The translations under genes and the position numbers were made by a program. The notes under the pieces are model-generated. The model had not been told where the DNA came from. It made no database searches and saw nothing but the letters and a program-made list of their open reading frames with translations. From the NCBI RefSeq assembly GCF_965660805.1, contig NZ_CBFIBE010000003.1:37030-101029 (forward strand): a DNA stretch of 64,000 nt. The letters run 5' to 3'. Positions 2,024 to 63,068 of the stretch are shown here, in pieces. The number at the start of each line of letters is the position of its first letter. The stretch's first letter is position 1. The DNA comes from Nonlabens sp. Lineage in GTDB: Bacteria; Bacteroidota; Bacteroidia; Flavobacteriales; Flavobacteriaceae.

Positions 2024-2039
2024 CGCTTTCGCGAAAGCG
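2024..2039. repeat. 16-bp palindrome copy 1, perfect, intergenic
   Basis: CGCTTTCGCGAAAGCG between divergent ppa and the VWA gene. Confidence 0.97.
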
Positions 2040-2174
2040 AATTCACAATAATCTCCATGATAAACATACTTAAACCGTTTATAAAGAACCTTAAAGCAAC
2101 TTTTATGTTTTAAAGCCATGTTAAATTGATGGTTCAAGGAAGGAATTATCATTTATCACGACTATCTTTAACCT

Positions 2175-3320
2175 ATGATGCAAGAAAGAGCTGGTTATAA
2201 ATTTGAATTCTTTAATCCTAAAGATGTTGATCCATTTGATAAGTTATTTGGGATATTTAAAGAATTAATTACGCATACATCAGGAGATTTTGACGAGGCT
2301 ATAGACTGGTTACGCGAGCTGGATAAAGAATATAAACTCACAACTCCAGAATACACTATTGATGATTTTATAAATGATTTACTAGAACGTGGTTATATTA
2401 AGCAGGAAATAGATCCTACTACTGGTGGCGATGGAACTGGTGATGAAGCAGGTTCAGGAGCTTTCTCAATTACTGCCAAAACTGAGCAACTCCTGCGGCA
2501 GCATGCCCTAGAACAAATCTTTGGTAACATGCGTAAAGGGAATAGCGGTAATCACAAAACAGGTAAATTAGGAACTGGAGATGAACATAGCGGTGATTAT
2601 AGATCTTATCGTTTTGGAGATGGGCTAGACCGTATTTCTATGACAGAGAGCTTGCGTAACGCACAGATTAATCATGGTATGGGAAACTTTAATCTTACTG
2701 AAGATGATCTGGTGGTAGAAGACACGCAGTTTAAGGCTCAAATGTCTACCGTACTAATGATTGATATCTCACACTCCATGATTCTCTATGGAGAAGATCG
2801 TATCACACCTGCTAAAAAGGTAGCTATGGCACTAGCAGAGTTGATCACGACTCGTTATCCTAAAGATACCTTAGACATTATCGTCTTCGGTAATGATTCC
2901 TGGCCCATTAAAATTGCTGATTTGCCATATTTAAAAGTAGGTCCATATCATACTAATACTGTAGCTGGTTTACAGCTTGCTATGGATATACTGCGTCGCA
3001 AGCGCAATACTAATAAGCAAATTTTTATGATTACTGACGGTAAACCTAGCTGTTTGCGATTAAAGGATGGTCGTTATTATAAAAATAGTAACGGTTTAGA
3101 CGAGTACATTGTTGATAAATGCTACACTATGGCAGCACAAGCACGCAGGTTACATATTCCCATTACTACCTTTATGATTGCAAATGACCCTTATTTACAA
3201 CGATTTGTAGATGAATTTACAGAGGCTAATCAGGGAAAAGCTTTCTTCACCGGTCTGCAAGGTCTAGGCGAAATGATTTTTACAGACTATGAAGCTAATA
3301 GAAAAAAAAGATTAAAGTGA
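2175..3320 (+). CDS. von Willebrand factor A (VWA) domain protein
   Basis: MIDAS motif DISHSM, plus T (HTNTVAGL) and ITDG elements. Confidence 0.85.
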   Translation: MMQERAGYKFEFFNPKDVDPFDKLFGIFKELITHTSGDFDEAIDWLRELDKEYKLTTPEYTIDDFINDLLERGYIKQEIDPTTGGDGTGDEAGSGAFSITAKTEQLLRQHALEQIFGNMRKGNSGNHKTGKLGTGDEHSGDYRSYRFGDGLDRISMTESLRNAQINHGMGNFNLTEDDLVVEDTQFKAQMSTVLMIDISHSMILYGEDRITPAKKVAMALAELITTRYPKDTLDIIVFGNDSWPIKIADLPYLKVGPYHTNTVAGLQLAMDILRRKRNTNKQIFMITDGKPSCLRLKDGRYYKNSNGLDEYIVDKCYTMAAQARRLHIPITTFMIANDPYLQRFVDEFTEANQGKAFFTGLQGLGEMIFTDYEANRKKRLK

Positions 3321-3400
3321 TAGTTAAAAGTATGATATTACGTTTAACGTTATATTGTTTGTTTTATTTATATACCCGACTAGGAATTTGAAATTCGGTA

Positions 3401-4060
3401 TTACTTCTTTAACTTTTTATAATATTCATCCAGCACTTTTTTTCTTCCTACAGTCTTAGTAATGATATCTTTTTCTAGATCCCAGCCACGTGCCGGACTG
3501 TATTCACGACCGTACCAGATGATTTGTAAATGTAAATCGTTCCACTTTTCTTCTGGAAACAAGCGTTTAGCATCTTTTTCTGTTTGAACTACGTTTTTAC
3601 CGGTAGTAAGGTTCCAGCGGTACATTAATCTGTGAATATGAGTGTCTACAGGAAATGCTGGAATGCCAAAAGCTTGTGACATTACCACCGCAGCCGTTTT
3701 ATGACCTACAGCAGGCATAGCCTCTAGTTCTGCATAGGTTTGTGGTACCTTTCCATCATGTAAGTCTAGAATCATTTGTGATAGACCGTGAATTCCTTTA
3801 GCTTTCATAGGTGATAGTCCTACTGGTTTAATAATTTCACGTATCTCATCTACAGACATGCGCACCATATCATAAGGGTTATCAGCACGTTTAAAGAGTA
3901 GAGGTGTGATTTGATTCACTCTTACATCAGTACTTTGAGCACTCATTAATACGGCTATTAATAAAGTGTATGGATCTTTATGATCTAGAGGTATCGGTAT
4001 TTCTGGATAGAGTTCTTCCAGTTTATTTATGATAAAATTTACTCTTTCCTCTTTATTCAT
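3401..4060 (-). CDS. nth: Endonuclease III, HhH-GPD glycosylase; no C-terminal 4Fe-4S cysteine cluster seen
   Basis: LIAVLMSAQSTD, HhH PAVGHKTA, FPVDTHIHR. Confidence 0.93.
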   Translation of the reverse strand: MNKEERVNFIINKLEELYPEIPIPLDHKDPYTLLIAVLMSAQSTDVRVNQITPLLFKRADNPYDMVRMSVDEIREIIKPVGLSPMKAKGIHGLSQMILDLHDGKVPQTYAELEAMPAVGHKTAAVVMSQAFGIPAFPVDTHIHRLMYRWNLTTGKNVVQTEKDAKRLFPEEKWNDLHLQIIWYGREYSPARGWDLEKDIITKTVGRKKVLDEYYKKLKK

Positions 4061-4094: not shown

Positions 4095-4544
4095 ATGACC
4101 ACATTAAAAGCAGGAGATCAAGCACCAGATTTTTCAGTAGTGAATCAAGATGGAAATGCCGTGTCTCTAGCCGATTTTAAAGGCAAAAAGTTAGTTTTAT
4201 TTTTCTATCCTAAAGCAAGTACTCCTGGCTGCACGGCCGAGGCTTGTAACCTGAGAGATAATGTAGATCGCTTTCGCGAAAGCGGATACGAGATTCTAGG
4301 TGCTAGTGCAGATAGTCCTAAAAGACAATTGAATTTTAAAAACAAGTATGAATTACCTTATGACCTGCTCGCTGATGAAGATCACAGGTTATTAAATGCT
4401 TATAAAGTTTGGGGTCCTAAGAAGTTTATGGGTAAAGAGTATGATGGTATTCATAGAACTACTTTTGTGATCGATGAAAATGGTGTTATTACTGATGTGA
4501 TTACTAAGGTAAAAACCAAAGATCATACTGCTCAAATTCTATAA
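4095..4544 (+). CDS. bcp: Thioredoxin-dependent thiol peroxidase (BCP/PrxQ)
   Basis: FFYPKASTPGCTAEAC, RTTFVIDENG. Confidence 0.95.
   Translation: MTTLKAGDQAPDFSVVNQDGNAVSLADFKGKKLVLFFYPKASTPGCTAEACNLRDNVDRFRESGYEILGASADSPKRQLNFKNKYELPYDLLADEDHRLLNAYKVWGPKKFMGKEYDGIHRTTFVIDENGVITDVITKVKTKDHTAQIL
4269..4284. repeat. 16-bp palindrome copy 2, perfect, in bcp, read as RFRES
   Basis: ...DNVD-RFRES-GYEILG... Confidence 0.97.
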
Positions 4545-7418: not shown

Positions 7419-8089
7419 TTAGAGTTTTTTTCCAGCCAGGCTTTCATATCATAAAAATTATCCCTAGCCACGCCGTGACCTATAGGATAATCTTTAAAAA
7501 CATAATCGAGTTCTAGGTTTTTTAAGATGTCTGGAGCAAGTTTAGCCCATGCATAGGGTACTACTTGATCTACGGTCCCGTGTGAAATGAAATAGGATGG
7601 TTTTGTTACGCTTTCGCGAAAGCGTGCTTCTAACTCCTCCCGATTATAAATCATTTCTTCATTTAAATAACCACTCATACACACTACTTTATCAAATAAT
7701 TGTGGATAGGATAGACTTAATCCATATGATAAGATAGCTCCTTGACTAAAGCCTAGAATATTAATTTGCTCTTGAGAAATAGAGTAACTGTTTTTAAGTT
7801 CTTCTATAAATTTGAGAAGTAATGTCATGCTCTGTTTTGCTTGATTCACATCACTGAATTTACCGCCAGTAGCGTCAAAGTTAATCGCATACCATGCTGC
7901 TCCATAAGGAGGTAAATCATATGGAGCACGTGCAGAAACGATAAAGAATTCTTGTGATAATTCTGGTGTAAAAGAGAATAAATCCTCCTCATTACTGCCA
8001 TAACCATGAAGTAATAGGAGTAATGGAGCGTTTTCTTTAAGTGCAGGTCTTATAACATGCTTAAGGGATAGATCTGAACGAGCTTTCAT
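7415..8089 (-). CDS. Phospholipase/carboxylesterase, alpha/beta hydrolase
   Basis: LLLHGYGSNE, nucleophile GFSQG, HGTVDQVVP, GHGV. Confidence 0.92.
   Translation of the reverse strand: MKARSDLSLKHVIRPALKENAPLLLLLHGYGSNEEDLFSFTPELSQEFFIVSARAPYDLPPYGAAWYAINFDATGGKFSDVNQAKQSMTLLLKFIEELKNSYSISQEQINILGFSQGAILSYGLSLSYPQLFDKVVCMSGYLNEEMIYNREELEARFRESVTKPSYFISHGTVDQVVPYAWAKLAPDILKNLELDYVFKDYPIGHGVARDNFYDMKAWLEKNSN
7609..7624. repeat. 16-bp palindrome copy 3, perfect, in the esterase, read as RFRES
   Basis: ...ELEA-RFRES-VTKPSY... Confidence 0.97.
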
Positions 8090-12876: not shown

Positions 12877-13647
12877 TTACCCTAATTCTTTAAAAGCTCC
12901 TAAACCAAATAACGCAAAATCATATTTCACTGGATCGATGGGATCTAGTTTACGCAAAATAGTGTCTAGCTCAGTAACTGTTTTTGCATCATTCTGTTTG
13001 CGCTTGATCATTTTTAACTTGCGAGCTATAGTTCCAGTATGTACGTCAAGTGGAAGAGATAAGGCGCTCATAGGAATGGTATTCCAGATTCCAAAATCTA
13101 CACCAGCCTTATCATTGCGTACCATCCATCTTAAGTACATGTTGATTCTTTTGGCACTACTGTTTTTCATAGGGTCACTGACATGCTTTTGGGTACGTGG
13201 CATGTGTTCTATCTCAAAAAAGAGTTGTTTAAACATAGAGATAGCATGTTGAAGATGAGATGTTTCTTGATACGCTTTTGCAAAAGCGTGTTCTAAACCA
13301 CCATAACGCAGTTCTATATGTTTTAAAGAACGCATAAAGGTCTTGCAATCCTCATTATTAAAGGTACGATGCACAAAACCGTCAAATCGATCCAGGTCAG
13401 ACGCTGTATGATTCCTTATAAAATCTGCAGGTGCATGTTCCATTAATTCCATAAGTTTATGGGAATTATTAATAATGGATTTACGGTTTCCCCATGCTAT
13501 AGTAGCTACTAGAAAGCCCGCGATTTCTATATCTTTTTTATTTGTAAAAAGGTGCGGAATCTGAATAGGGTCATGAGGTATAAAGTCTGGAACGTTGTAT
13601 TGTTCCACTTTTGCATCAAGAAATTCTTTGAGCTGTGCCCTAGTCAT
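12877..13647 (-). CDS. TIGR02757/DUF2400 family protein
   Basis: [37 protein letters not shown]. Confidence 0.88.
13273..13288. repeat. 16-bp palindrome copy 4, two symmetric mismatches, still a perfect palindrome, read as AFAKA
   Basis: CGCTTTTGCAAAAGCG; protein ...[11 protein letters not shown]... Confidence 0.8.
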
Positions 13648-14355: not shown

Positions 14356-16812
14356 TTAAGTCTTAAACCATTGCGGTCCTTCATTAAAGTCTATAAAATA
14401 ATTAATGCGGATTGAGAAATTGTGCCTTACTGGTTGTTCAAAAAGAGTTCCTAAACTTTCTTCAAATCTTATCGTACCTTGATTATCAAAGTTGTTCATA
14501 CTATTGCGATAGAGTAGTGTCATTTCACTGCCAGGAGCAAAACGCCAGCGATAAGAGAGATCTAGATTCCATATATTAAAATTTGCATCAGGATTAAAAT
14601 CATCTTCTAATGTGTAATCACTATCAGCTACAGTTCCGTCTCTTTGTAGTTCTTTAAAATCCTTACTAAAGGTAGCTCTAGACCAGAAATTCCTAAAACT
14701 GATGCTTAAAGCATTGCGATTATTAAAGTTATAAGTTCCAGTAACTCTGTTTTCTACACTGTGAGTATCTCTTTCACTAAGGATAGAGGTAGTGTCATTA
14801 TTAGATAGAGTTACATAACTCATTCTATCATTGCTTTTTCTCCAATTGATACTGTGGATCAACAAGAACTGATCACTAAACCTATAACGCGGACTTATGC
14901 GATAATTATAATTATGTTCCTTTTCATTAAATCTCTTATATCTTCCAGCTCTAGCGTCAATAGCAAATCTTTTACGATAGTCACTTGAGATAAAGCCACC
15001 TGTAAAAAAGCCTGCACCATATCGCACAATAGCATCTTCAATACGAGATTCAAATTGATCTTTAAATTCAGTATTATAATTAATATCTAAACCAAATGCG
15101 AAACGCTCTTTTGTTATAAAAAACGGATTAAAACTTACTTCTGTACCCGTGTGAAAAGCAGGAGTAGCAGCTCTCCTATGTCTTACATTTAACCGGAGCT
15201 CATAACGATTAAAAATTCCTTGTTGTGTTAATTGTACATAATCTAGGTCAGCGACAAAGGTGTGACGGTTAGTTCTAAAATTGCGACCTAAATCATTAGG
15301 GTTGTAACCACGATCTACAAAAAAGTGACCCAAGCGTGGTCTCCATTTACCTGCGGTAACACGCCAGTCCAGCTCTGTCGCATAACCTGTTTCAGTTCCT
15401 GTAATTGTAAAACGGTTAGACATTTTTGCCTGAGCTCTTAAGTTCTGTGTTGCCCGTTTATTATTGTGATTTAAGGCCATAGCACTAACATTTGCATCTG
15501 TGAACGCTCCATTGCGCAGGACATTTGTATTTACCAGTGCTATAGAGCTGTTATTGCCATATTGTTGATCAAGTACGAGAACATTATAATTTGTAAGAGG
15601 TTCAGTAATTAGATTTCTTTTAGTTCCTGTATTATTATCTCTTATCACGGCTTCTGTTTTCTCAGTAATAGAATTAAGAAATCCTATTCCTAGGCCACTA
15701 TTTGTACGGCCTGTAATTTTTACAGCATTTAGTAATTGAGCACTAGAAGGGTTCTCTAGAATTTCCTCGCTTTCTAGTGTATCTATATCACTAGCGCCAG
15801 TAGGCGTTTGACCTATTCTTCTAGAGAAAAAAATATTACCTTTATTAAATAGGTCTACACCTTCAGTAAAAAAGGCTCGATTCTCTGCAAACAATTGTTC
15901 AAATGGGCCTAAATTTAAAACTACCTGATCAAAAGCTACCTGACCAAAATCAGGAATCAAGGTAGCATCTAGTGTAAAGGCATCACTTAAACCATATTTA
16001 ATATCTAGTCCTGCTGCAAAGTTTGTGGAGTTGTTTCCATCAAGTCTATCATGTATGGTAGTGAGATAAGGATATAAGTTTAATCTTAATGGCGGGTTTA
16101 TATCTTCAATACCAGTAAGTAAAGCGTCATACTGCGTGTTTACACCTTTTGTAATATCTATGTAGTTATAACTATATTCTTCATTTAAGTGACGTATTCT
16201 ACGGAACACTTGAAAGGACCAGTCTTGAACCTTCTTTTCAGGAAATCTTAATGTTCTATACGGAATGCGCATTTCCACATACCATCCTTTCTGATCAAAA
16301 CTTACTTCAGAAAGAAAAACGACATTAAAGGAAAAGTCCTGACGATTTCCTTCCACAACAGCGTCTCCTAAGGAATTACCAGCAGTTGCAAAAAAACGAG
16401 TCTGATTGATCTGGTTATTATAGGTATTAATATAAAGGCCAAAAAGGTCTGCTTGTGCATCTATGTCATCTCTTTGAGAGAACTGTCTTAAGACTTTTTC
16501 GGGTTCATTGTCATATAAATATGCAGCAACGTATATTGCATTATCATCATAAGCGATTTTAAACTCTGTAGGGTGTGTTTTTCTTTCAGCCTGACCATTT
16601 ATGGGTTCAGTCATAATAAAATCACCACCGGTAGGAATTTGATCCCAGATTTTTTCAAATGGTTTTCCATCTATTTGAGGCGGCGTGGAAATACGGGTTG
16701 CCTCATAAGATTTCCTCTTAATGATAGTTGTATCTTGTTGTATTGTCGTGGTATTCGCTTTCGCGAAAGCGTAACAACATAACATTATCAGTAAAATAGC
16801 AAGACGATTCAT
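14356..16812 (-). CDS. DUF5916 family outer-membrane protein (N-terminal CBM9/DOMON-like part plus beta-barrel)
   Basis: Signal peptide, PQIDGK..W, EMRIPYRTLRF, PDFGQV, ENRAFFTEG, FFSRRIG. Confidence 0.8.
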   Translation of the reverse strand: MNRLAILLIMLCCYAFAKANTTTIQQDTTIIKRKSYEATRISTPPQIDGKPFEKIWDQIPTGGDFIMTEPINGQAERKTHPTEFKIAYDDNAIYVAAYLYDNEPEKVLRQFSQRDDIDAQADLFGLYINTYNNQINQTRFFATAGNSLGDAVVEGNRQDFSFNVVFLSEVSFDQKGWYVEMRIPYRTLRFPEKKVQDWSFQVFRRIRHLNEEYSYNYIDITKGVNTQYDALLTGIEDINPPLRLNLYPYLTTIHDRLDGNNSTNFAAGLDIKYGLSDAFTLDATLIPDFGQVAFDQVVLNLGPFEQLFAENRAFFTEGVDLFNKGNIFFSRRIGQTPTGASDIDTLESEEILENPSSAQLLNAVKITGRTNSGLGIGFLNSITEKTEAVIRDNNTGTKRNLITEPLTNYNVLVLDQQYGNNSSIALVNTNVLRNGAFTDANVSAMALNHNNKRATQNLRAQAKMSNRFTITGTETGYATELDWRVTAGKWRPRLGHFFVDRGYNPNDLGRNFRTNRHTFVADLDYVQLTQQGIFNRYELRLNVRHRRAATPAFHTGTEVSFNPFFITKERFAFGLDINYNTEFKDQFESRIEDAIVRYGAGFFTGGFISSDYRKRFAIDARAGRYKRFNEKEHNYNYRISPRYRFSDQFLLIHSINWRKSNDRMSYVTLSNNDTTSILSERDTHSVENRVTGTYNFNNRNALSISFRNFWSRATFSKDFKELQRDGTVADSDYTLEDDFNPDANFNIWNLDLSYRWRFAPGSEMTLLYRNSMNNFDNQGTIRFEESLGTLFEQPVRHNFSIRINYFIDFNEGPQWFKT
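16756..16771. repeat. 16-bp palindrome copy 5, perfect, in the signal peptide, read as AFAKA
   Basis: MNRLAILLIMLCCY-AFAKA-NTTT. Confidence 0.97.
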
Positions 16813-18624: not shown

Positions 18625-18673
18625 TTATACCAATTTGTGCTTATTAAGACTTTATAAATTCAATTTGGTATTA
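18625..18673. mobile_element. Inverted-repeat-bounded mini-element, copy A (49 bp), putative MITE or IS-end remnant
   Basis: TTATACCAATTTG...CAATTTGGTATTA, 11/13 inverted match; 18641-18673 is identical to 49373-49405. Confidence 0.6.
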
Positions 18674-20454: not shown

Positions 20455-20470
20455 CGCTTTCGCGAAAGCG
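20455..20470. repeat. 16-bp palindrome copy 6, perfect, intergenic
   Basis: CGCTTTCGCGAAAGCG upstream of the DUF937 gene. Confidence 0.97.
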
Positions 20471-20667: not shown

Positions 20668-20692
20668 AAAAAGCGCCCTGAAAAGGGCGCTT
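20668..20692 (-). terminator. Intrinsic terminator of the sigma factor gene
   Basis: AAGCGCCCT-gaaa-AGGGCGCTT with a U-run on the minus strand. Confidence 0.75.
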
Positions 20693-21763: not shown

Positions 21764-21779
21764 CGCTTTCGCGAAAGCG
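21764..21779. repeat. 16-bp palindrome copy 7, perfect, intergenic
   Basis: CGCTTTCGCGAAAGCG upstream of the sigma factor gene. Confidence 0.97.
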
Positions 21780-28087: not shown

Positions 28088-29383
28088 ATGAAGAAGCCAG
28101 TTCTTATCATTGCTTATTACTGGCCGCCAGCAGGTGGACCTGGTGTGCAACGATGGTTAAAATTTGCTACTTATTTACCGCAGCACGGCTTTGAGGTGAC
28201 CGTTGTAGTTCCAGAAAACCCAGATTATCCTGTAATTGATGAATCACTCCTAGAACAAGTTCCTGAAGATGTTTCTATCATTAAGGTGCCTATAAATGAA
28301 CCTAGTAGATGGTCTAGTGCGCTTTCGCGAAAGCGAACTAAAAATCTTCAAAAAGGAATACTGCCTAAAAATGCAGGTATGTTACAACGCGCCATGATAT
28401 GGATGCGCGGTAACTTATTTGTTCCTGATGCACGAGTAGGATGGAAGTCTCGAGTTTTAAAAGCTATACATCCCTATTTGCTAGAGCATAAAAATCCTAC
28501 TGTAATAACCACAGGACCACCGCATTCTATTCATTTAATAGGCTTAGAATTAAAGAAAAAATACAAGGGTTTTAAGTGGCTTGCAGATTTTAGAGACCCG
28601 TGGACTACTATAGGTTATCATAAACATTTGAAAATAGGAGCTAGTGCTCAAAAAAAGCACGAGCGTTTAGAACAAGAGGTTTTAGATCATGCAGATTTAA
28701 TAATCGTTACTAGTCCACATACAGGAAAGGAGTTTGCTAGCAAGACTACAACACCTCTTCAGGTTATTACAAATGGGTATGATATTGAAGCGGCACAAAC
28801 TACCCGTCAACCAGATAGTGTTTTTACACTGGCTCATGTAGGAACCTTATTATCAGATCGTGATCCGGTTATTTTATGGGAATGTCTATCTGAGCTTTGT
28901 AAGGAAAGGGAAGATTTTAATACAGATTTTAAATTACAACTGGCCGGTAGCATAAGTGATGAAGTCATTGCCTCTATAAAAAAATCTGGATTAGAAAATA
29001 AGTCAGAATTGCTAGGTTATGTAGATCATCAACAAGCTGTTGAGCTCATGTTTAAGGCGCAATGCTTATTACTCATAGAGGTAGATAGTAAAGATACACA
29101 GGCCATTATACCAGGAAAGATTTTTGAATATCTCGCCAGCCGCAGACCTATTATAGCCATAGGACCTTCTCAGGCAGATATCGAGCAATTCATCAAGCAT
29201 ACTCATTCTGGTCACTATTTTAATTATCAAGAAAAAATAGCTCTTAAAAAACACATTCTTGAAAAATATGAGCTTTTTAAAAATAGCAATAATGAAGGGA
29301 ACAGTCACCCGAGTATCTCAAGTTATAAGAGAGAATTATTAACAGGAACACTTGCTAAAACCATTGCCTACACATGGGAATAG
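28088..29383 (+). CDS. Glycosyltransferase family 4 (GT-B)
   Basis: YYWPPAGGPGVQRW, TTGPPHS, DFRDPW, PGKIFEYLA. Confidence 0.88.
   Translation: MKKPVLIIAYYWPPAGGPGVQRWLKFATYLPQHGFEVTVVVPENPDYPVIDESLLEQVPEDVSIIKVPINEPSRWSSALSRKRTKNLQKGILPKNAGMLQRAMIWMRGNLFVPDARVGWKSRVLKAIHPYLLEHKNPTVITTGPPHSIHLIGLELKKKYKGFKWLADFRDPWTTIGYHKHLKIGASAQKKHERLEQEVLDHADLIIVTSPHTGKEFASKTTTPLQVITNGYDIEAAQTTRQPDSVFTLAHVGTLLSDRDPVILWECLSELCKEREDFNTDFKLQLAGSISDEVIASIKKSGLENKSELLGYVDHQQAVELMFKAQCLLLIEVDSKDTQAIIPGKIFEYLASRRPIIAIGPSQADIEQFIKHTHSGHYFNYQEKIALKKHILEKYELFKNSNNEGNSHPSISSYKRELLTGTLAKTIAYTWE
28320..28335. repeat. 16-bp palindrome copy 8, perfect, in the GT4 gene, read as LSRKR
   Basis: ...WSSA-LSRKR-TKNL... Confidence 0.97.
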
Positions 29384-35121: not shown

Positions 35122-35137
35122 AGCTTTCGCGAAATCG
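35122..35137. repeat. 16-bp palindrome copy 10, two mismatches, intergenic
   Basis: AGCTTTCGCGAAATCG. Confidence 0.8.
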
Positions 35138-36630: not shown

Positions 36631-36638
36631 TATATTTG
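36631..36638 (+). promoter_or_regulatory. -7 promoter box of hisS
   Basis: TATATTTG; places the start at ATG 36656. Confidence 0.7.
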
Positions 36639-36655
36639 CAGTAATAAACAAAGTT

Positions 36656-38026
36656 ATGGCACAAAAACCTTCTATACCTAAAGGAACTAGAGATTTCAGT
36701 CCTGTTGAAGTACAGCGACGTCAGTTTATAATGAATACTATCAAGCATCATTTTGAGCACTATGGTTTCATGCCTATAGAAACACCTAGCTTTGAAAACA
36801 GCGATACCTTATTAGGAAAATATGGAGAAGAAGGCGACCGATTAATTTTTAAGATATTGAATAATGGTCAGTACTTAAAAAAAGTAAATGAGACAGACTT
36901 AGGTGCTAAAAATGAGTCTAAAGTATCTCCTCAAATCAGTAAAAGAGCCTTGCGTTATGACTTAACAGTACCATTTGCTCGTTATGTAGTACAACACCAG
37001 AATGATATTACTTTCCCTTTTAAGCGTTATCAGATTCAGCCGGTATGGAGAGCAGACCGACCGCAGCATGGACGTTTTCAAGAATTCTATCAGTGCGATG
37101 CAGATGTGGTGGGAAGTGATTCCCTATTACAAGAAGTAGAGCTGGTAAAGTTATATGATGCTGTTTTTACAGATTTAAAATTAGAAAATTGTACTATAAA
37201 AATTAATAATAGAAAGATTCTTGCTGGTATAGCTCAAATGATAGGAGCACAAGATCAGCTTATAGACTTTACGGTAGCACTTGATAAACTGGATAAAATA
37301 GGAGTCGATAAGGTAAAGGAAGAAATGATCCTAAAAGGAATCAGTCCTATTGCTATAGAAAAACTCAATCCTGTTTTTAGTCTTCAAGGCGACTTTACTG
37401 AAAAACTAGAGGTTATGAAAGACTTACTTTCTGATTCTGAAATAGGGCAGAAGGGAATCCAGGAGTTAACCTTTATTAATAATGCTATCAAGAAACTAGG
37501 CTTAAAGAGCGCTTTATTAGACTTAGATATCACACTTGCTCGTGGCTTAAATTATTACACAGGATGTATTTTTGAGGTTGCAGCACCAGCAGGAGTAAAG
37601 ATGGGAAGTATAGGTGGCGGTGGTCGTTATGATGACCTGACCAGCATGTTTGGTTTAAAAGCTGTAAGTGGAGTAGGAATCAGTTTTGGACTTGATCGCA
37701 TTTATCTTGTCATTGAAGAATTAGGTTTGTTTCCAGATTCTGTAAGAGCAGGAGTAGATGTGCTGTTTGTTAATTTTGGTGATAAAGAGAGTGAATATGC
37801 GATGGATTTGGTATTTCGCTTTCGCGAAAGCGGAATAAAATCTGAACTCTACCCAGAACAGGTAAAGACTCAAAAGCAAATGAAATATGCAGACCGAAAT
37901 GAAATACCTTATGTTATTTTAATAGGTGAGGATGAAATGAAACTCGGGTCTATTTTACTTAAAAATATGGTGAGTGGTGAACAAGAACTGCTTAAACCAG
38001 AAGAAGTAATTACACGATTAAAATAA
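36656..38026 (+). CDS. hisS: Histidine--tRNA ligase
   Basis: PKGTRDF, LRYDLTVPFAR, GRFQEFYQCDAD, ARGLNYYTG, GGGRYD. Confidence 0.98.
   Translation: MAQKPSIPKGTRDFSPVEVQRRQFIMNTIKHHFEHYGFMPIETPSFENSDTLLGKYGEEGDRLIFKILNNGQYLKKVNETDLGAKNESKVSPQISKRALRYDLTVPFARYVVQHQNDITFPFKRYQIQPVWRADRPQHGRFQEFYQCDADVVGSDSLLQEVELVKLYDAVFTDLKLENCTIKINNRKILAGIAQMIGAQDQLIDFTVALDKLDKIGVDKVKEEMILKGISPIAIEKLNPVFSLQGDFTEKLEVMKDLLSDSEIGQKGIQELTFINNAIKKLGLKSALLDLDITLARGLNYYTGCIFEVAAPAGVKMGSIGGGGRYDDLTSMFGLKAVSGVGISFGLDRIYLVIEELGLFPDSVRAGVDVLFVNFGDKESEYAMDLVFRFRESGIKSELYPEQVKTQKQMKYADRNEIPYVILIGEDEMKLGSILLKNMVSGEQELLKPEEVITRLK
37817..37832. repeat. 16-bp palindrome copy 11, perfect, in hisS, read as RFRES
   Basis: ...MDLVF-RFRES-GIKSELYP... 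in the anticodon-binding domain. Confidence 0.97.
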
Positions 38027-42896: not shown

Positions 42897-44775
42897 TCCA
42901 TGTATATTTTTGATTAGGCATTAATCTCACTAGTCCACGGTCTAGTAAATCTTTAAGAGTATTAATGACTTGTGATTGTTCCTTTTCAGGATGTAAAGAT
43001 GCAATTTCCTTAACGCTTAAGTCTGAATCCTGTAGTGCATTTTTTATTATTAAACTTAAGTTTCCTCTCTTTGTTGTTTTATTGCAATGTGTACATTTCC
43101 CGCAAGGATTAGATTCCTCTCCAAAGTATTTTAAAATCAGCACGTTAATACACTCTTCTTTTTGAGAGATAAGATCGCATATCAACTTGAGCTTCTCTTT
43201 TTTTACTTGATTTTGTTGTTTTAATGTTTTAGCAAAACGGTTGATTGTTCGATCATCATCACGCGGTTCGAGAAAAGTAATTTGAGTATCAGCATTAACG
43301 ATCTGTGCGTCTATAAGTTCCTTTTCTTCAAGGAATTTAAGAGTCTCCAGTACTTCGTTTTCTGTGGTATTACTGCGCAAAGCGATGATAGAACTATTAA
43401 TCTCTAAGTTTTGGTATGTACTACTGCCATAGGTGCGCAGTATAGATTGTATGATGGAGTTCATAGCAGGACGATTGTGTATGAACTCGAGAATTTTTTT
43501 TCCGCTTTCGCGAAAGCGTATACTTGATTTCCTGTGGTAATTTTGCGATAAGCTTATGATACTAAATCGGTCTAGCGTGAGTAGCACATTATAACAAAGA
43601 ACACCATTAATAGAGTAGGTGCTGGCAAAACTGGCAAAACTCAACTGATGGCTTGTGTTTTCTCCTTCACCCATTGCTATGCGTAAATAATTATTCAATT
43701 TACGGTACACATATTTAACTTGCTCAGTAGTGGCAAGAGATTTAATAAACTGATTTTGAGCATGTATAATATCGTTTATGTTATAGAAAAACTGAGCAAT
43801 ACTTTCTTTACCATCTCTACCAGCACGGCCTGTTTCTTGATAATAACTCTCTATACTGTCGGGCAGTTGTAAATGAGTAACTGTGCGCACATCAGGTTTA
43901 TCTATTCCCATACCAAATGCGTTTGTAGCTACCATCACCTGAGTATCATTTTCCATCCATGATTGAGCGGCTTTTACTTTAGTCTTGTGAGGTAAGCCTC
44001 CATGGTAAAAGTTAGAGGAAATACCATTTACCGTTAGTAACCTTGAATAGTTAACAGCATTCTTACGACTTCTTACATACGTGATTGAACTGCCTGTATG
44101 TTTTTTATAGAACTCTGTATAACTGCTGTTTTTATCTTCTGTATCTGTGATGTAATAGCTTATATTAGGTCTCAAATAACTGTTTTTAAAAACTTGATGA
44201 TTTACCAGCTCCAGATTTTCTATCATATCTTTTTGAACATCAAGTGTTGCAGTAGCAGTAACTGCAATTATAGGTGTAGCTTTATGAATTTTGCGTAGTA
44301 CTTTAATATCTCTGTATGCCGGTCTGAAATCATGTCCCCACTGGCTCACACAGTGTGCCTCATCTACAGCTATTAAGGACACCTTCATTCTAGCGATACG
44401 TTCTTGAACAAGACTTTGTTGTAGTCGTTCTGGACTTAGGTATAAGAATTGATACTGACCATAAATACAATTATCCAGTATATCATCGAGTTCTTGATAA
44501 GTGATACCACCAGTGATGCCTGTTGCTTTTATTCCTTTAGATTTTAAAGTGTTTACTTGATCTTTTATAAGCGCAACTAGTGGAGAAACAACAACGCAAA
44601 TTCCTTCTCGTACTAAACCTGGAATTTGATAACACAAGGATTTACCACCACCTGTAGGTAATAGAGCAAGAACATCATTACCTTCTATAACAGCATCTAT
44701 AATGGCTTCTTGCTGCGGTCTAAACGCGTTATAGCCAAAGGTGTTTTGTAATATATGTTTTGCTCCTGGATTCAA
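42889..44775 (-). CDS. recQ: RecQ family ATP-dependent DNA helicase
   Basis: PTGGGKSLCYQ, DEAHCVSQWGHDFRP, ATNAFGMGIDK, YYQETGRAGRDG, C-terminal Zn-binding cysteines. Confidence 0.92.
   Translation of the reverse strand: MNPGAKHILQNTFGYNAFRPQQEAIIDAVIEGNDVLALLPTGGGKSLCYQIPGLVREGICVVVSPLVALIKDQVNTLKSKGIKATGITGGITYQELDDILDNCIYGQYQFLYLSPERLQQSLVQERIARMKVSLIAVDEAHCVSQWGHDFRPAYRDIKVLRKIHKATPIIAVTATATLDVQKDMIENLELVNHQVFKNSYLRPNISYYITDTEDKNSSYTEFYKKHTGSSITYVRSRKNAVNYSRLLTVNGISSNFYHGGLPHKTKVKAAQSWMENDTQVMVATNAFGMGIDKPDVRTVTHLQLPDSIESYYQETGRAGRDGKESIAQFFYNINDIIHAQNQFIKSLATTEQVKYVYRKLNNYLRIAMGEGENTSHQLSFASFASTYSINGVLCYNVLLTLDRFSIISLSQNYHRKSSIRFRESGKKILEFIHNRPAMNSIIQSILRTYGSSTYQNLEINSSIIALRSNTTENEVLETLKFLEEKELIDAQIVNADTQITFLEPRDDDRTINRFAKTLKQQNQVKKEKLKLICDLISQKEECINVLILKYFGEESNPCGKCTHCNKTTKRGNLSLIIKNALQDSDLSVKEIASLHPEKEQSQVINTLKDLLDRGLVRLMPNQKYTWNE
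43503..43518. repeat. 16-bp palindrome copy 12, perfect, in recQ, read as RFRES
   Basis: ...RKSSI-RFRES-GKKIL... Confidence 0.97.
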
Positions 44776-48054: not shown

Positions 48055-48097
48055 GGTTTAATTACGCTTTCGCATAAGCATAATTAAACCTTTTTTT
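48055..48097 (+). terminator. murA terminator hairpin containing a degenerate palindrome copy
   Basis: GGTTTAATTACGCTT-tcgcat-AAGCATAATTAAACC followed by T7. Confidence 0.7.
48065..48080. repeat. 16-bp palindrome copy 13, three mismatches, intergenic
   Basis: CGCTTTCGCATAAGCA. Confidence 0.6.
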
Positions 48098-49366: not shown

Positions 49367-49405
49367 ACCAATTTATTAAGACTTTATAAATTCAATTTGG
49401 TATTA
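49367..49405. mobile_element. Mini-element copy C, left end eroded
   Basis: ACCAATTT-ATTAAGACTTTATAAATTCAATTTGGTATTA equals copy A without GTGCTT. Confidence 0.6.
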
Positions 49406-49617: not shown

Positions 49618-50589
49618 GTGAAAATCACAAACTATATGGAAGTACAAGAATTAATTATTGCACGCTTTCGCGAAAGCGTTTCTCACACGAACTCCTTCAT
49701 CCAGTACTTTGCAGATGTTCTAGATCTGAGTTACGATGCCGCTTATCGTAGGATTCAAGGAAAAGCTAAACTAGAAATACATGAAGCCATGAAGCTTGCT
49801 AGATTAGGTGAGTTTTCTCTAGATCATATTATGACTGCGCATCAAGACCTAACGGCGCTAGGTACTGCCACTAAGAAGATTCATTCTATGGAATCACTTG
49901 AGTTCTATTTTAAGGAAATGGAAAATAACCTTAAAGCTGCTGGCAAGAAAGGAGTAGAGTGGATTTATAGCGCTAAGGATATTCCTGTTTTTCATCATTT
50001 TAATGATACGCATTTAGCTCGTTTTAAGATTTATGTCTGGATGCAATTACTGGATGATTCTATGGAAGGAAAACGTTTTTCAGATTTTCACTTGCCGCTG
50101 TCCATGAAAGAACAAATTAAAAAGAATAAGGCACTTTTTGAACAGTATAATAGGGTGGAGATCTGGAATGATACGACTATCTCTAGTAGTTTACAGCAAA
50201 TTCATTTTTATCATGAGGCTGGTTATATAGATCAAGATATGGCTGTTATTTTATGTGAGGATTTAAGGAGTCTTCTTAAAAAAACCGCTGCAGATTTGCT
50301 TACAACCTCATATAATATTTATTACCACGAGCTCTTATTAATGAGTAATAACGCTATCGTTAAAAAAAATGGAAAGGCTATTGCTGGTTTTGTAACCATG
50401 ACTTTGCTAGGTTATATAAGATTTAGTGGTAGTAATATTTTAAACCGAATGGATGATTTTTTCAAGTATCAAATAAGGCAAGCCACATCTATAAAAGATT
50501 GCTCTTTAAAAGAACGCTCCATATTTTTTAATAAAATGGAACAAAAAATTAACGCTCTAGAAAAATCTCTAGAGCGTTTTAGTCTGTAA
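49618..50589 (+). CDS. Hypothetical protein with an N-terminal HTH-like domain
   Basis: FADVLDLSYDAAYRRIQGK resembles an XRE/BetR-type HTH. Start may be ATG 49636. Confidence 0.7.
   Translation: MKITNYMEVQELIIARFRESVSHTNSFIQYFADVLDLSYDAAYRRIQGKAKLEIHEAMKLARLGEFSLDHIMTAHQDLTALGTATKKIHSMESLEFYFKEMENNLKAAGKKGVEWIYSAKDIPVFHHFNDTHLARFKIYVWMQLLDDSMEGKRFSDFHLPLSMKEQIKKNKALFEQYNRVEIWNDTTISSSLQQIHFYHEAGYIDQDMAVILCEDLRSLLKKTAADLLTTSYNIYYHELLLMSNNAIVKKNGKAIAGFVTMTLLGYIRFSGSNILNRMDDFFKYQIRQATSIKDCSLKERSIFFNKMEQKINALEKSLERFSL
49663..49678. repeat. 16-bp palindrome copy 14, perfect, read as RFRES
   Basis: ...LIIA-RFRES-VSHT... Confidence 0.97.
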
Positions 50590-52128: not shown

Positions 52129-52144
52129 AGCTTTCGCGAAAGCG
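52129..52144. repeat. 16-bp palindrome copy 15, one mismatch, intergenic
   Basis: AGCTTTCGCGAAAGCG, 8 nt upstream of the aroB ATG. Confidence 0.92.
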
Positions 52145-57103: not shown

Positions 57104-58339
57104 TTGTTCCTTTTGAATCTACAGAACAAACATAAAATATTAAACGATCCCATTTATGGTTTTATTACCATTCCTAATGAGGACTTATTTACAATTATAG
57201 AACATCCATACTTTCAGAGGTTGCGGCGTGTTACACAAATGGGCTTGAGTTATCTAGTATATCCTGGAGCACATCATACCAGATTTCACCACGCACTAGG
57301 TTGTTTGCATTTAATGCAAAAAGCAGTACAAGTACTTCGTTCTAAGAATGTTGACATCTCTTATGAAGAAGAAGATGCTCTTTATAAAGCTATTCTATTA
57401 CATGATATAGGTCATGGACCTTTTTCTCATGCTATGGAGCATAGTATCATTAATAATGTAAGTCACGAGGATATTTCTATCCTTTTTATGGAATCTTTGA
57501 ATAAGGAGTTTAACGGTAGTTTAACGCTTGCAATTCAAATTTTCAAAGGAGCATATCACCGACCTTTTATGATGCAATTGATCTCAAGCCAGCTGGATAT
57601 GGATCGATTAGATTACTTGAAACGAGATAGTTTTTATACAGGTGTTGCAGAAGGGAACATTAATAGCCAGCGATTAATCGCTATGCTTAATGTTAAAAAT
57701 GATGAACTCGTTATCGAGGAAAAAGGGATTTACTCTGTAGAGCATTTTCTAAGCAGCCGCAGGCTCATGTATTGGCAAGTCTATTTGCACAAAACAGGTA
57801 TAGGTGCTGAGCATTTACTACAATCTGTTTTTGTACGCATTAAGGAGCTTATAGGTAAAGGGATAGAAGTGGATTTACCATCAGACTTAAAATATTTTTT
57901 AACACATGGTATTACTTTAGCTCATTTTACTCAAGAAAACTTAAACAGATTTGCTAGGTTAGATGACACTGACTTAATCACCACGCTTAAATTAGGATCA
58001 CAGCATGAGGACTTTGTGTTACAGGAACTATGTAATATGATTTTAAATAGGCAATTACTTAAAATCAAATTTTCAAAAGAGCCTATCAGTGATAAAAAAC
58101 TTCAGAAAAAAAAGCATCAATTAATAAAAGCGAGGAGTTTATCTGATCATGAAGCGCAATATTTTGTGTTCTCTGGAGCTGTTCATAATCTCGCTTACGC
58201 GAAAGCGAAACCTATAAAAATATTATTAAAAAATGGTAAACTTGTAGAACTCATAAAGGCTGGCGAGGAAGCAAGTTTTAAGGCACTGACCAAAAAGGTG
58301 ACAAAATATTACTATTGCTATCCAAAGATTCAGGATTAA
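57104..58339 (+). CDS. HD-domain phosphohydrolase, dNTP triphosphohydrolase-like
   Basis: DPIYG, FQRLRR, YPGAHHTRFHH, LLHDIGHGPFSH, D.DRLDYL.RD, MYWQVY.HK. Start is TTG 57104 or 57113. Confidence 0.9.
   Translation: MFLLNLQNKHKILNDPIYGFITIPNEDLFTIIEHPYFQRLRRVTQMGLSYLVYPGAHHTRFHHALGCLHLMQKAVQVLRSKNVDISYEEEDALYKAILLHDIGHGPFSHAMEHSIINNVSHEDISILFMESLNKEFNGSLTLAIQIFKGAYHRPFMMQLISSQLDMDRLDYLKRDSFYTGVAEGNINSQRLIAMLNVKNDELVIEEKGIYSVEHFLSSRRLMYWQVYLHKTGIGAEHLLQSVFVRIKELIGKGIEVDLPSDLKYFLTHGITLAHFTQENLNRFARLDDTDLITTLKLGSQHEDFVLQELCNMILNRQLLKIKFSKEPISDKKLQKKKHQLIKARSLSDHEAQYFVFSGAVHNLAYAKAKPIKILLKNGKLVELIKAGEEASFKALTKKVTKYYYCYPKIQD
57127..57134 (-). promoter_or_regulatory. Candidate -7 box of porX inside the HD coding sequence
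   Basis: TATGTTTG on the minus strand. Confidence 0.5.
58192..58207. repeat. 16-bp palindrome copy 16, one mismatch, in the HD gene, read as AYAKA
   Basis: CGCTTACGCGAAAGCG; ...HNL-AYAKA-KPI... Confidence 0.9.
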
Positions 58340-60783: not shown

Positions 60784-61568
60784 TGAATCAACCACTAGCA
60801 TACGTACATCCAGGAGCAAAAATCGCTAAGAATGTCGTTATAGAACCGTTTACAACCATCCATAATGATGTAATCATAGGTGAAGGAACCTGGATAGGTT
60901 CTAATGTCACGATTATGGAAGGTGCACGCATAGGGAAGAACGTGAGTATCTTTCCCGGTGCAGTAATAAGTGCAATTCCACAAGATAAAAAATTTGAAGA
61001 TGAGGATACAACTACCGTAATAGGTGATAACACAACTATTAGGGAATGTGTAACTATTAATAGAGGTACCTCTGATCGCATGAAAACTGTTATAGGTAAG
61101 AACTGTTGGATCATGGCTTACTGCCATATCGCACATGACTGTATAGTAGGTGATAATTGTATTTTTTCAAATAACAGCACACTTGCAGGTCACATTACAG
61201 TAGGTGATCATGTAGTACTAGCAGGAATGGCTGCGGTACAACAGTTTTGTCAAATAGGTAGTCACTCCTTTGTAACAGGAGGATCACTGGTTAGAAAAGA
61301 TGTTCCACCTTTTGTAAAAGCAGGACGTGAACCGTTAAGCTATGTAGGGATCAATTCTGTAGGATTAAGAAGAAGAGGTTTTGAATTAGAGAAAATAAGA
61401 GAAATTCAAGATATTTACAGAATACTTTATCAAAAAAATTATAACGTATCTCAAGCCGTTCAAATTATTGAAGCAGAAATGAGTGCGACTAATGAAAGGG
61501 ATGAAATTATAGAATTTATAAAAAACTCAAAACGAGGTATCATGAGAGGATACGTCGGTAGTAACTAA
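60783..61568 (+). CDS. lpxA: Acyl-ACP--UDP-N-acetylglucosamine O-acyltransferase
   Basis: Hexapeptide repeats, PQD.KF, IRECVTINRGT, HIAHDC, GINSVGLRRRG. Confidence 0.97.
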   Translation: MNQPLAYVHPGAKIAKNVVIEPFTTIHNDVIIGEGTWIGSNVTIMEGARIGKNVSIFPGAVISAIPQDKKFEDEDTTTVIGDNTTIRECVTINRGTSDRMKTVIGKNCWIMAYCHIAHDCIVGDNCIFSNNSTLAGHITVGDHVVLAGMAAVQQFCQIGSHSFVTGGSLVRKDVPPFVKAGREPLSYVGINSVGLRRRGFELEKIREIQDIYRILYQKNYNVSQAVQIIEAEMSATNERDEIIEFIKNSKRGIMRGYVGSN

Positions 61569-61574
61569 AATATT

Positions 61575-62141
61575 ATGGCAAGTACAAGCGACATTAGAAA
61601 AGGATTGTGTATAAGATACAATCATGACATTTATAAAATTGTTGAATTCTTACACGTTAAACCTGGTAAAGGTCCAGCATTTGTAAGAACTAAACTAAAA
61701 AGTGTCACAAACGGTAAGGTGATAGATAATACCTTCTCTGCAGGACATAAGATCGAGGATATACGTGTAGAAACACAATCATTCCAGTTCCTTTATCAAG
61801 ATCCAGAAGGTTATCATTTTATGAATACAGAGACCTACGAGCAAATCCTTTTGCAAGAAACTGTTCTTGATGCTCCAGGACTTTTAAAAGAAGGTGAAAT
61901 TGTTAAAATACAGATCAATACTGAGGACGACTCACCATTATCTGTAGACATGCCACAATATGTAGTACTAGAAGTTACTGCCACAGAGCCAGGACTTAAA
62001 GGAAATACAGCTACTAACGCGACTAAACCTGCAACTGTAGAAACAGGCGCACAGGTTAATGTGCCTTTATTTATTAATGAAGGCGATAAAATACGAATCG
62101 ATACAGAAAAAGGTGCTTATCACGAGCGCATGAAAGAGTAA
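61575..62141 (+). CDS. efp: Elongation factor P
   Basis: HVKPGKGPAFVRTKLK, PG.KGNTA, KPATVETG, VPLFI. Confidence 0.98.
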   Translation: MASTSDIRKGLCIRYNHDIYKIVEFLHVKPGKGPAFVRTKLKSVTNGKVIDNTFSAGHKIEDIRVETQSFQFLYQDPEGYHFMNTETYEQILLQETVLDAPGLLKEGEIVKIQINTEDDSPLSVDMPQYVVLEVTATEPGLKGNTATNATKPATVETGAQVNVPLFINEGDKIRIDTEKGAYHERMKE

Positions 62142-63068
62142 ATGAAATTCTCTCAAACACATCGTTTAAAAGATATTGCTGCGCTCATTAATTGTGAGTA
62201 TGTAGGCGATGATCTGTTTCCAGTGACCGGTATGAATGAAATCCATGTGGTAACACCTGGAGATATAGTGTTTGTAGATCATCCTAAGTATTATGATAAA
62301 GCATTACATAGTGATGCTACCGTTGTACTTATTAATAAAAAAGTAGAAGCACCGGCAGGGAAAGCACTACTCATATCAGATGATCCTTTTAGGGACTTTA
62401 ATAAATTAACCCAGCATTTTGCTCCTTTTCACGCTTTCGCGGAAGCGAATACAACACCACCACAAGTAGGTGAAGGAACCGTTGTGCAACCTAATGTATT
62501 TTTAGGGAATGATGTTGTGGTAGGATCAAATTGTGTGATCCATAGTAATGTGTCCATTAATGATAGGTGCATTTTAGGTGATAACGTCATTATACATTCT
62601 GGAACCGTTCTAGGAGCCGATGCTTTTTATTACAAACGTAGACCTGAAGGTTACGATAAGTTATTAAGTAATGGTCGCGTTGTTATTGAAGATCATGTAG
62701 AGATAGGTAGTTTATGTACCATAGATCGTGGCGTGAGTGGTGATACAACTATAGGTCATGGAAGTAAACTCGATAATCAAGTCCATATAGGACATGATAC
62801 CACTTTAGGAAAACATGTTCTTATTGCTAGTCAAACAGGAATTTCTGGCTGTGTCGTTATAGAAGACGAAGTGAAAATATGGGGACAGGTAGGAATACGT
62901 AGTGATGTACGACTAGGTAAAGGATGTGAAATTATGGCACAAAGTGGTGTCTCAAAAGATGTAAAACCAGGAGATGTACTCTTCGGTTCACCGGCTTCAA
63001 ATGCTAAAGAAAAGTTTAGAGAGCTTGCAGCTATAAGAATGTTACCTAACTTTATAAAAAATAAATAA
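62142..63068 (+). CDS. Second LpxD-family acyltransferase (paralogue)
   Basis: LpxD-like N-terminus, hexapeptide repeats, LGADAF, IDRG, LDNQVHIGHD. Confidence 0.85.
   Translation: MKFSQTHRLKDIAALINCEYVGDDLFPVTGMNEIHVVTPGDIVFVDHPKYYDKALHSDATVVLINKKVEAPAGKALLISDDPFRDFNKLTQHFAPFHAFAEANTTPPQVGEGTVVQPNVFLGNDVVVGSNCVIHSNVSINDRCILGDNVIIHSGTVLGADAFYYKRRPEGYDKLLSNGRVVIEDHVEIGSLCTIDRGVSGDTTIGHGSKLDNQVHIGHDTTLGKHVLIASQTGISGCVVIEDEVKIWGQVGIRSDVRLGKGCEIMAQSGVSKDVKPGDVLFGSPASNAKEKFRELAAIRMLPNFIKNK
62432..62447. repeat. 16-bp palindrome copy 17, one mismatch, in the LpxD paralogue, read as AFAEA
   Basis: CGCTTTCGCGGAAGCG; ...APFH-AFAEA-NTT... Confidence 0.9.

Follow-up and report, generated by a model that had tools for sequence, protein, structure and literature searches.

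A 16-bp palindrome, CGCTTTCGCGAAAGCG, recurs across a 64,000-nucleotide stretch of the genome of a Nonlabens species (contig NZ_CBFIBE010000003.1), the whole of which is referred to below as the window. The analysis shows that this motif is a cis-acting signal carried by the DNA itself, as opposed to a peptide, an RNA family, a terminator or a mobile insertion, and that selection or drive holds it in place. A pattern search of the whole window returns 11 perfect copies and six further copies with one to three mismatches, whereas dinucleotide-preserving shuffles yield 0.00 perfect copies and 0.07 at three mismatches or fewer. The same 17 coordinates had been listed in a preliminary description of this DNA, and each was reproduced exactly; its chance estimate of ~2e-6 perfect copies is arithmetically correct given a GC content of 0.33-0.37 throughout the window and a motif that is 10/16 G+C. 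That description had read the element as a genome-wide DNA-level signal resembling the DNA uptake sequence (DUS), the uptake signal sequence (USS) or the highly iterated palindrome HIP1. This general reading holds, although the data pick none of the three functions that it had put forward.

Abundance, spacing and taxonomic distribution

The motif is the sole long repeated word revealed by a k-mer census of the window, in which no free half-sites (e.g., CGCGAAAGCG) occur outside the full palindrome. The 17 sites are spaced more evenly than random (coefficient of variation 0.42, gaps of 1.3-6.6 kb, P=0.0003), with degenerate copies occupying the largest gaps between perfect ones, and the minimum gap of 1309 bp bears out the initial remark that copies are never clustered. 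As first counted, and in agreement with the table of open reading frames (ORFs), six sites are intergenic (2024, 20455, 21764, 35122, 48065 and 52129) and 11 lie in ORFs. The 30 window ORFs scanned with Pfam are ordinary housekeeping or core genes, including those for a peroxiredoxin, histidyl-tRNA synthetase (HisRS), a RecQ-type helicase, an EPSP-synthase-family protein and 3-dehydroquinate synthase, as well as LpxC/LpxD/LpxA-type lipid A genes, with ribosomal proteins nearby; neither a transposase nor an evident cognate gene was found among them, as had been claimed. Among copies with at most two mismatches, the outermost base pair accounts for 53 of 79 mismatches, and because mismatches concentrate there, the 14-mer GCTTTCGCGAAAGC can be taken as the invariant core.

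Scanning 185,579 species genomes identified the exact motif in at least 119 stretches. Among the matches listed, nearly all belong to Dokdonia, Nonlabens or uncultured or unnamed Flavobacteriaceae, and the singletons in unrelated high-GC taxa are at chance level. Confinement to the window had been named in advance as grounds for rejecting a genome-wide signal; the motif is instead found across Nonlabens and Dokdonia genomes, and its occurrence in independent complete genomes rules out an assembly artefact.

To guard against ascertainment bias, density was assessed in a motif-blind sample, i.e., at loci anchored on HisRS or GcvP homologues. Per ~21.4 kb, these loci contain six core copies in CP138994.1, four in MAG-97, six in N. 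dokdonensis DSW-6, five in N. ponticola and six in N. marinus, while a Dokdonia MED134-type contig holds six core copies and one near copy in 16.5 kb. Comparable loci of Olleya marilimosa, Patiriisocius marinus and Rasiella rasia, 67 kb altogether, contain 0 core copies and no other repeated word. The density of ~1 per 3-5 kb in Nonlabens-type and Dokdonia genomes extrapolates to ~600-1200 copies per genome, which agrees with the several hundred to ~1000 predicted from the window; at ~1 per 4 kb in the motif-blind loci, the copies are, as argued from the start, too many for parS, matS, NBS, SBS or a regulon. About 27% of the copies in this sample are intergenic, ~3-fold over the non-coding fraction as read from gene tables, and ~73% lie within genes, in either orientation. 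Core one-mismatch variants are scarce (~6 vs 39 intact copies).

The closest named genus among homologues of the window HisRS is Nonlabens (~75% identity). Sequencing-run records trace the window to marine plankton metagenome material, and a search for RNA-seq runs returned none containing its organism. In a small sample of 58 x 70 genic copies, 0 orthologous sites are common to Dokdonia and Nonlabens, and one gene carries the motif in both genera, at positions 42 residues apart. Either turnover has been complete, or the copies accumulated independently in the two genera. Patiriisocius and Rasiella give similar per-gene identities, which do not settle whether Dokdonia and Nonlabens are sister genera.

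Several local arrangements were recorded at related loci compared with the window, which bear labels such as L120, L122 and L170. Two of three tandem paralogous genes in N. dokdonensis DSW-6 (L124) carry the motif 34 nt past the start codon, at 17945 and 18690; PF19578 DUF6090 is present in two of the three paralogues, and the motifs were either duplicated with the gene or retained at a fixed N-terminal position. A perfect copy in Nonlabens MAG-97 (L122, 2677-2692) lies in parB, adjoining parA, within a region syntenic with the HisRS neighbourhood of the window. Near HisRS, a giant Por_Secre_tail/Laminin_G surface-protein gene (5.3 kb) is motif-free in every genome having it, and the largest motif-free gaps (L125 and L126, 11.4-16.7 kb; L171, 4979-10432) correspond to this giant gene, which suggests that fast-evolving or recently acquired genes are without the motif.

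The motif is also carried by phages, with matches in 42 stretches among 2.9 million viral contigs, several of which are real tailed phages. A 37-kb contig encodes terminase, portal, sheath and baseplate proteins, members of a siphovirus-like family carry genes for tape-measure, major head and portal proteins, and another motif-bearing contig, L137, shows an integrase match. Phage copies occur within structural genes such as those for terminase and portal, and also at gene junctions, ~4.5-5 kb apart, i.e., at a host-like density, and their flanks are skewed as in the host (see below). Loci of temperate tailed phages or prophages of the clade with the motif include L149, L166 and L169 (IMGVR_UViG_3300040781_000495), together with L142, L146, L147, L156 and L159, and the motif could be a host-assignment marker for these phages.

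Architecture, origin and conservation of the site

The anatomy of the site was drawn from 152-155 perfect copies pooled from the window and related loci. With TA on either side, the 16-mer becomes a 20-bp palindrome (TA-core-TA); T occupies -2 in 74% of copies and A occupies -1 in 44%, and the position-specific flank adjoining the core reads T-R-A-T-T-A. A compositional skew reaches ~17-18 nt on each side, the strand running 5′ to 3′ into the core being C-depleted and GT-rich. The frequency of C is 0-12% at most flank positions and 8% over -20 to -3, against a background of 19%, and C is found at -3 in 0/152 copies. T and G account for 39% and 25%, respectively, of the flank entering the core 5′ to 3′, with the mirror image on the 3′ side. 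The words TGT, GTT, GTG and GGT are enriched, with no single consensus, and T peaks at -3, -6, -9 and -12. The skew is present in intergenic copies and in genic copies on both coding and template strands. Altogether, the functional footprint is predicted to be wider than 16 bp, i.e., ~50 bp with the flanks. In the encoded proteins, Cys (2.6x) and Val are over-represented among the eight residues upstream of the motif, where Pro, His, Gln, Asn and Thr are under-represented, while the eight residues downstream show the opposite pattern, with His, Pro and Gln enriched; the HisRS residues that precede the motif are W/C/M/G/V/F-rich in motif-bearing genomes only.

Positions 8-15 on each strand read GCGAAAGC, extended by one more C-G pair. 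This octamer forms a DNA mini-hairpin of extraordinary stability that resists exonucleases (Hirao et al.; review PMC13037366), and nearest-neighbour folding of the 16-mer as DNA gives a 6-bp stem with a 4-nt loop at -4.3 kcal/mol. A longer hairpin or structured element was rejected, as flank complementarity within copies is no higher than between copies, except at +/-1. The 16-bp motif initially described is real, but its 14-bp core, its ~18-nt GT/AC-skewed flanks, its even spacing and its prophage copies had been missed.

Alignment with orthologues shows that genic copies arise by substitution and not by insertion. Outgroup HisRS proteins read xLRxxG where those of the clade read RFRESG, without any indel, and L101 has the motif where the window has 16 unrelated bases at equal length. 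Within the D. donghaensis group alone, the ancestral GcvP sequence AVFAKA/GVFAEA has changed to SAFAKA, a motif gain at a pre-adapted peptide. An insertion of 16+2 bp with TA duplication, which would keep the frame, is contradicted by the equal length of motif-free orthologues.

Once established, copies persist over deep divergence. The window copies at 28320 and 30579 are perfect at the orthologous positions of L120 (~77% DNA identity), the latter also in L170, and the copy at 43503 is perfect in L122 (~69% DNA identity). The motif in HisRS, which uses rare CGC codons, is identical at the DNA level in six genomes (L122, L124, L125, L126, L171 and the window), and the site in the ogt gene is common to all relatives examined. 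Overall, between genomes of 70-77% identity, 7/9 orthologous comparisons are identical, compared with 4.0% of 49,215 aligned 14-mers (binomial P=5e-9), five of the nine comparisons being supplied by the HisRS site and hence non-independent. Such conservation at fixed positions argues against pure continual replenishment by biased repair.

The HisRS copy is lost in the L120/L170 lineage, where L170 still encodes RFRESG from the DNA CGTTTCCGTGAAAGTG, through four synonymous changes of which three are C-to-T at third codon positions. Because L170 keeps RFRESG without the motif, the constraint bears on the DNA and not on the peptide. In the pool, 86/155 copies are genic, a further 15 lie at the 5′ edges of ORFs, and the 86 genic copies use all three frames (AFAKA 55, RFRES 20, LSRK 11). 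Selection at the peptide level, for AFAKA or RFRES, is thus excluded by the use of three frames and by the intergenic copies as well as by L170. Two more copies are decaying by single changes between L120 and L170 (86% identity), and the commonest internal decay is C7-to-T at a CpG.

Individual copies and other repeats in the window

Eight of the perfect copies lie in ORFs. The motif reads RFRESG in an AhpC/TSA peroxiredoxin gene (4269..4284; gene 4095-4544, +), in the HisRS gene (37817..37832; 36605-38026, +) and in the RecQ-type helicase gene (43503..43518; 42889-44775, -), and RFRESV in a carboxylesterase/alpha-beta hydrolase gene (7609..7624; 7415-8089, -). It reads YAFAKA at residues 14-19 of a DUF5916/CBM9 protein (16756..16771; 14356-16812, -), where it follows a hydrophobic N-terminal stretch that is a putative signal peptide, and again in a Polysacc_synt membrane-protein gene (30579..30594; 29374-30825, +). 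The copy in a glycosyltransferase gene (28320..28335; 28088-29383, +) reads LSRKR, and that at 49663..49678 is located at the extreme 5′ end of an ORF (49618-50589, +). The HisRS ORF spans 473 aa in the window and its closest relatives, vs 456 aa in most homologues, and its 17 extra N-terminal codons (36605-36655) may be a start-codon miscall and not an extension.

Among the intergenic sites, the perfect copy at 2024..2039 separates a divergent pair of ORFs, one inorganic pyrophosphatase-like (1443-1982, -) and one with a VWA domain (2175-3320, +). The copy at 20455..20470 is flanked by a distinct canonical terminator hairpin (20671-20692) on one side and by the start of the next gene (20372) on the other, and the one at 21764..21779 extends to the full TA...TA 20-bp palindrome. 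AGCTTTCGCGAAAGCG, in which an outer base is altered and the core is intact, is found at 52129..52144 between divergent aroB-like and proline dehydrogenase genes. A three-mismatch variant, CGCTTTCGCATAAGCA, follows the EPSP-synthase-family (PF00275) gene at 48065..48080, and the matching intergenic region of a relative, L032, holds a perfect copy.

Of the remaining variants, CGCTTTTGCAAAAGCG (13273..13288) has two mismatches, which are symmetric CpG-to-TpG/CpA changes; it reads HAFAKA in a DUF2400 gene and occupies the long gap between the 7609 and 16756 copies. CGCTTACGCGAAAGCG (58192..58207, HD-domain gene, LAYAKA) and CGCTTTCGCGGAAGCG (62432..62447, LpxD-like gene, HAFAEA) each have one mismatch. 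The two-mismatch variant AGCTTTCGCGAAATCG (35122..35137) is the only, degenerate, copy in a non-coding stretch of ~490 bp (34796-35288) that has no ORF of at least 100 aa and is not alignable with L171, a locus elsewhere 86-93% identical. Relatives have there an ogt/MGMT-type gene (PF01035) with AGCTTTCGCGAAAGCG, placed between DUF6495 and FtsX-like permease genes in L120, L122, L124, L125, L126, L170 and L171, and it looks like this gene was lost or replaced in the window lineage.

A second repeat of ~33 nt, ttattaagacttTAtaaaTCAATTTGGTATTA, is unrelated to the motif. Its three copies (18641-18673, 35062-35094 and 49373-49405) share the same orientation and lie outside long ORFs, one of them 40 nt upstream of the degenerate copy at 35122. 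This second repeat may represent a promoter, an operator or a small-RNA element. A 36-bp perfect palindrome, ATCCATAGATGCGGACTTAAGTCCGCATCTATGGAT, lies at 1262-1297 between two convergent genes (685-1239, + and 1443-1982, -) and probably forms a terminator-type hairpin that works in both directions.

Function of the motif and its place among known systems

The explanation placed first, though held tentatively and with less than even confidence, is that the motif serves as a protein-read self-DNA tag for uptake or homologous recombination, in the manner of USS and DUS. A symmetric (dimeric) DNA-binding protein would read the palindrome as 'self' on double-stranded DNA. Tagged fragments would be preferentially taken up and recombined, so that new copies would appear at tolerant sites and mutated copies would be restored. 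No strong selection at each site would then be needed for the motif to be hyperabundant, positionally stable, evenly spaced, enriched between genes and biased in frame, and such a tag is ranked first because uptake-biased transformation is the only well-understood route to such a pattern. Findlay and Redfield reportedly found in 2009 that USS are located at protein positions that tolerate them. In Flavobacteriales, preference for own DNA has been described together with natural competence in Riemerella columbina (PMC7965970), and HIP1, the nearest palindromic analogue, for long without an assigned function, has lately been linked to transformation.

A number of points weigh against a self-DNA tag. 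USS and DUS are asymmetric 9-12-mers, whereas the motif is a 14-16-bp perfect palindrome; they often form terminator pairs, whereas the flanks of the motif run the other way (T-rich upstream, A-rich downstream). They belong to Proteobacteria and have a known or proposed pilin receptor and a demonstrated uptake bias, while the motif belongs to Bacteroidota. The specificity of the core, judged from the ratio of one-mismatch to intact copies (~6 vs 39), is steeper than that known for USS. No receptor or competence gene was found in the Pfam scans of the 30 window ORFs. The strand-specific GT/AC skew is absent from USS and DUS and is easier to reconcile with a single-strand or RecA-related step, and the evidence is equally compatible with any function needing one site per few kb.

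A bidirectional Chi-like recombination signal is a possible but less probable alternative. A helicase-nuclease resecting from either side would meet the palindrome on the 3′-ended strand; the 3′ half, GCGAAAGC, would fold into a nuclease-resistant mini-hairpin or be recognised, degradation would stop, and RecA would load on the GT-rich ~18 nt immediately 5′ of the GCGAAAGC half. RecA favours GT-rich DNA, and in E. coli, Chi is said, after work by Tracy and Kowalczykowski in 1996-97, to lie within GT-rich islands. The GT-rich, C-poor flank found 5′ of the core on both strands, flipping at the dyad, has the geometry to be expected of a 3′ tail that ends at the signal, and the ~18-nt footprint and the T peaks each 3 nt to -12 point the same way, although this 3-nt period may stem partly from coding copies. 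A density of 1 per 3-5 kb and even spacing also resemble Chi, temperate phages carry the motif at host density, and the exonuclease resistance of GCGAAAGC is documented (PMC13037366). However, known Chi sites are 5-8 nt long, asymmetric and replication-co-oriented, none being palindromic or having 14 bases specified, and the selection on each Chi site is weak, in contrast with near-perfect conservation at ~70% identity and a cost in protein sequence here. A more elaborate form of this proposal is rated slightly lower again: a palindromic, hairpin-capable, bidirectional Chi equivalent, new in kind, in which GCGAAAGC would cap the resected 3′ tail, the flank would be a nucleation zone for RecA (or DprA-RecA), and the whole, present in host chromosomes as well as in temperate phages, would label DNA as 'self' to the end-processing machinery of the cell.

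Chromosome organisation appears a rather unlikely role: here a clade-specific nucleoid-associated or chromosome-organising protein would bind as a dimer over ~50 bp each ~4 kb, and the resulting lattice would structure, segregate or topologically partition the chromosome. The perfect dyad and graded flanks (T-R-A-T-T-A) are typical of a dimeric binder of double-stranded DNA, and regular spacing and strong positional conservation agree with a lattice. ParB-parS, Noc-NBS, SlmA-SBS and MatP-matS, however, have tens of sites and not ~1000, prophages would have little reason to carry sites at host density, a strand-specific 'no C' flank over 17 positions is odd for duplex readout, and no candidate protein was found; in favour of a lattice, a role in chromosome structure has been proposed for HIP1 (PMC5861425). 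Biased repair or gene conversion of the HIP1 type, methylation-linked or mismatch-specific, is more doubtful still. An enzyme pair would repair toward the palindrome, protecting copies and converting heteroduplexes, and its genes, being of a kind that moves horizontally, could account for the patchy genus distribution. The CpG-rich centre TCGCGA and the prevalence of C7-to-T decay at a CpG (seen also at 13273 and in L170) agree with this reading, the scarcity of one-mismatch variants would be explained by repair toward the motif, and HIP1 includes methyltransferase targets (PMC4390886). Yet conservation at orthologous positions favours maintenance of particular sites over replenishment, an argument that Xu et al. 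(PMC5861425) made for HIP1, and biased repair accounts for neither the ~18-nt flank skew nor even spacing. Outside the motif, TCGCGA and CGCG are neither avoided nor enriched (TCGCGA 4 vs ~6 expected, CGCG 51 vs ~60), and this lack of avoidance also disposes of a restriction-modification trace.

An element acting in RNA or transcription (a terminator, or an mRNA-stabilising or processing hairpin), or a small mobile repeat of the repetitive extragenic palindrome (REP) or miniature inverted-repeat transposable element (MITE) kind, is very improbable. It would make use of the 6-bp stem and 4-nt loop noted above, and two intergenic copies fit a lax terminator pattern on the + strand, opposite to flanking - strand ORFs. 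Against this, most copies are genic (~73%) and in either orientation, and the stem is not extended by covariation. An intrinsic terminator is further excluded by a downstream flank that is A/C-rich and T-poor and by the flanking gene having its own terminator at 20671-20692, and an Rfam search of the window returned two tRNAs only, with no family match at the motif. A REP or bacterial interspersed mosaic element (BIME) moved by a REP-associated tyrosine transposase (RAYT) does not fit copies that are mostly genic, perfect and unclustered, and window scans revealed no transposase or RAYT. A MITE or other mobile insertion does not fit genic copies that replace 16 nt at constant length, with no target-site duplication; at 68-70% identity, the one intergenic case, that of a 63-bp spacer in L067, speaks neither for nor against insertion.

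The searchable literature, which covers subscription papers in part, yielded nothing relevant on the motif string, on palindromes or repeats of Dokdonia and Nonlabens, or on elements of the HIP or DUS type in Flavobacteria or Bacteroidetes. The palindromes reported there for Dokdonia and Nonlabens are CRISPR only, and Elhai 2015, on HIPs, makes no mention of Flavobacteria or Bacteroidetes. The preliminary description, which knew of no account of the motif in Flavobacteriaceae, was in this respect right. Several features are without precedent, namely the 14-bp invariant palindrome, the dyad-flipped GT/AC skew and the embedded mini-hairpin. Genome-saturating short words under selection or drive are few (USS, DUS, HIP1, Chi), and each of these opened work on transformation, recombination or chromosome structure. 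The motif would be, as far as found, the first such word in Bacteroidota, and the longest and most specific one, strong enough to reshape protein sequence. It is present in marine model bacteria that can be cultivated (Dokdonia sp. MED134-type, Nonlabens dokdonensis DSW-6, N. marinus), which makes its function directly testable, and the motif-free Patiriisocius, Rasiella and Olleya provide a clean phyletic screen for the cognate protein. The site may be key to the genetic tractability of these genera, through transformation efficiency or linear-DNA protection, and is a sharp taxonomic marker for metagenomic binning and phage-host assignment.

Compared with known systems, the motif shares a 14-16-bp dyad with parS, NBS, SBS and matS, and its TTTC...GAAA half-sites resemble those of parS and NBS. 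In parS and NBS, 4 bp separate the TTTC block from the GAAA block, compared with 2 bp in the motif. The parS, NBS, SBS and matS sites have known consensus sequences from which the motif differs, and they number in the tens (~5-100 per genome) and are regional, whereas the ~600-1200 copies of the motif represent a copy number ~10-100 times higher. The d(GCGAAAGC) mini-hairpin, present exactly in the motif, is known as a physico-chemical motif at some phage and plasmid origins and is not known to form arrays across a genome; its folding in the cell would here be hypothetical. Like REP and BIME, the motif is a short, dispersed palindromic repeat with hundreds of copies, but REP are extragenic, imperfect, often clustered and RAYT-associated, while the motif is ~73% genic, perfect, unclustered and substitution-derived. 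It resembles Chi in its spacing of ~1 per 4-5 kb, its GT-rich 5′ context, its taxon-specific sequence and its presence in core genes and phages. Chi, however, is an asymmetric, strand-biased word of 5-8 nt that is only few-fold over-represented, whereas the motif is perfectly palindromic, has 14 fixed bases in its invariant core and shows a more than million-fold over-representation.

HIP1 (GCGATCGC) is likewise a hyperabundant, GC-rich, short perfect palindrome that is over-represented within and between genes, and it is conserved between genomes beyond background (PMC5861425). It differs from the motif in sequence and in its cyanobacterial phylum; it is 8 bp long, occurs at ~1 per kb phylum-wide and embeds the methyltransferase sites CGATCG and GATC, whereas the motif is twice as long, is restricted to one or two genera, occurs at ~1 per 4 kb and has a ~50-bp footprint. 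The likeness to USS and DUS is broader. The motif differs from them by its strand-symmetric GT/AC-skewed flanks and by the lack of terminator pairs; like them, it is a hyperabundant, clade-specific short word found on both strands, in hundreds to thousands of copies, genic and more densely intergenic, which are kept at homologous positions across diverged species and arise by substitution at tolerant coding and intergenic sites. USS are also present in temperate phages of their host, as is the motif here. Frame bias, tolerant protein positions, deep positional persistence, fairly even spacing, weaker preferences into the flanks and specificity at the genus or family level complete this resemblance.

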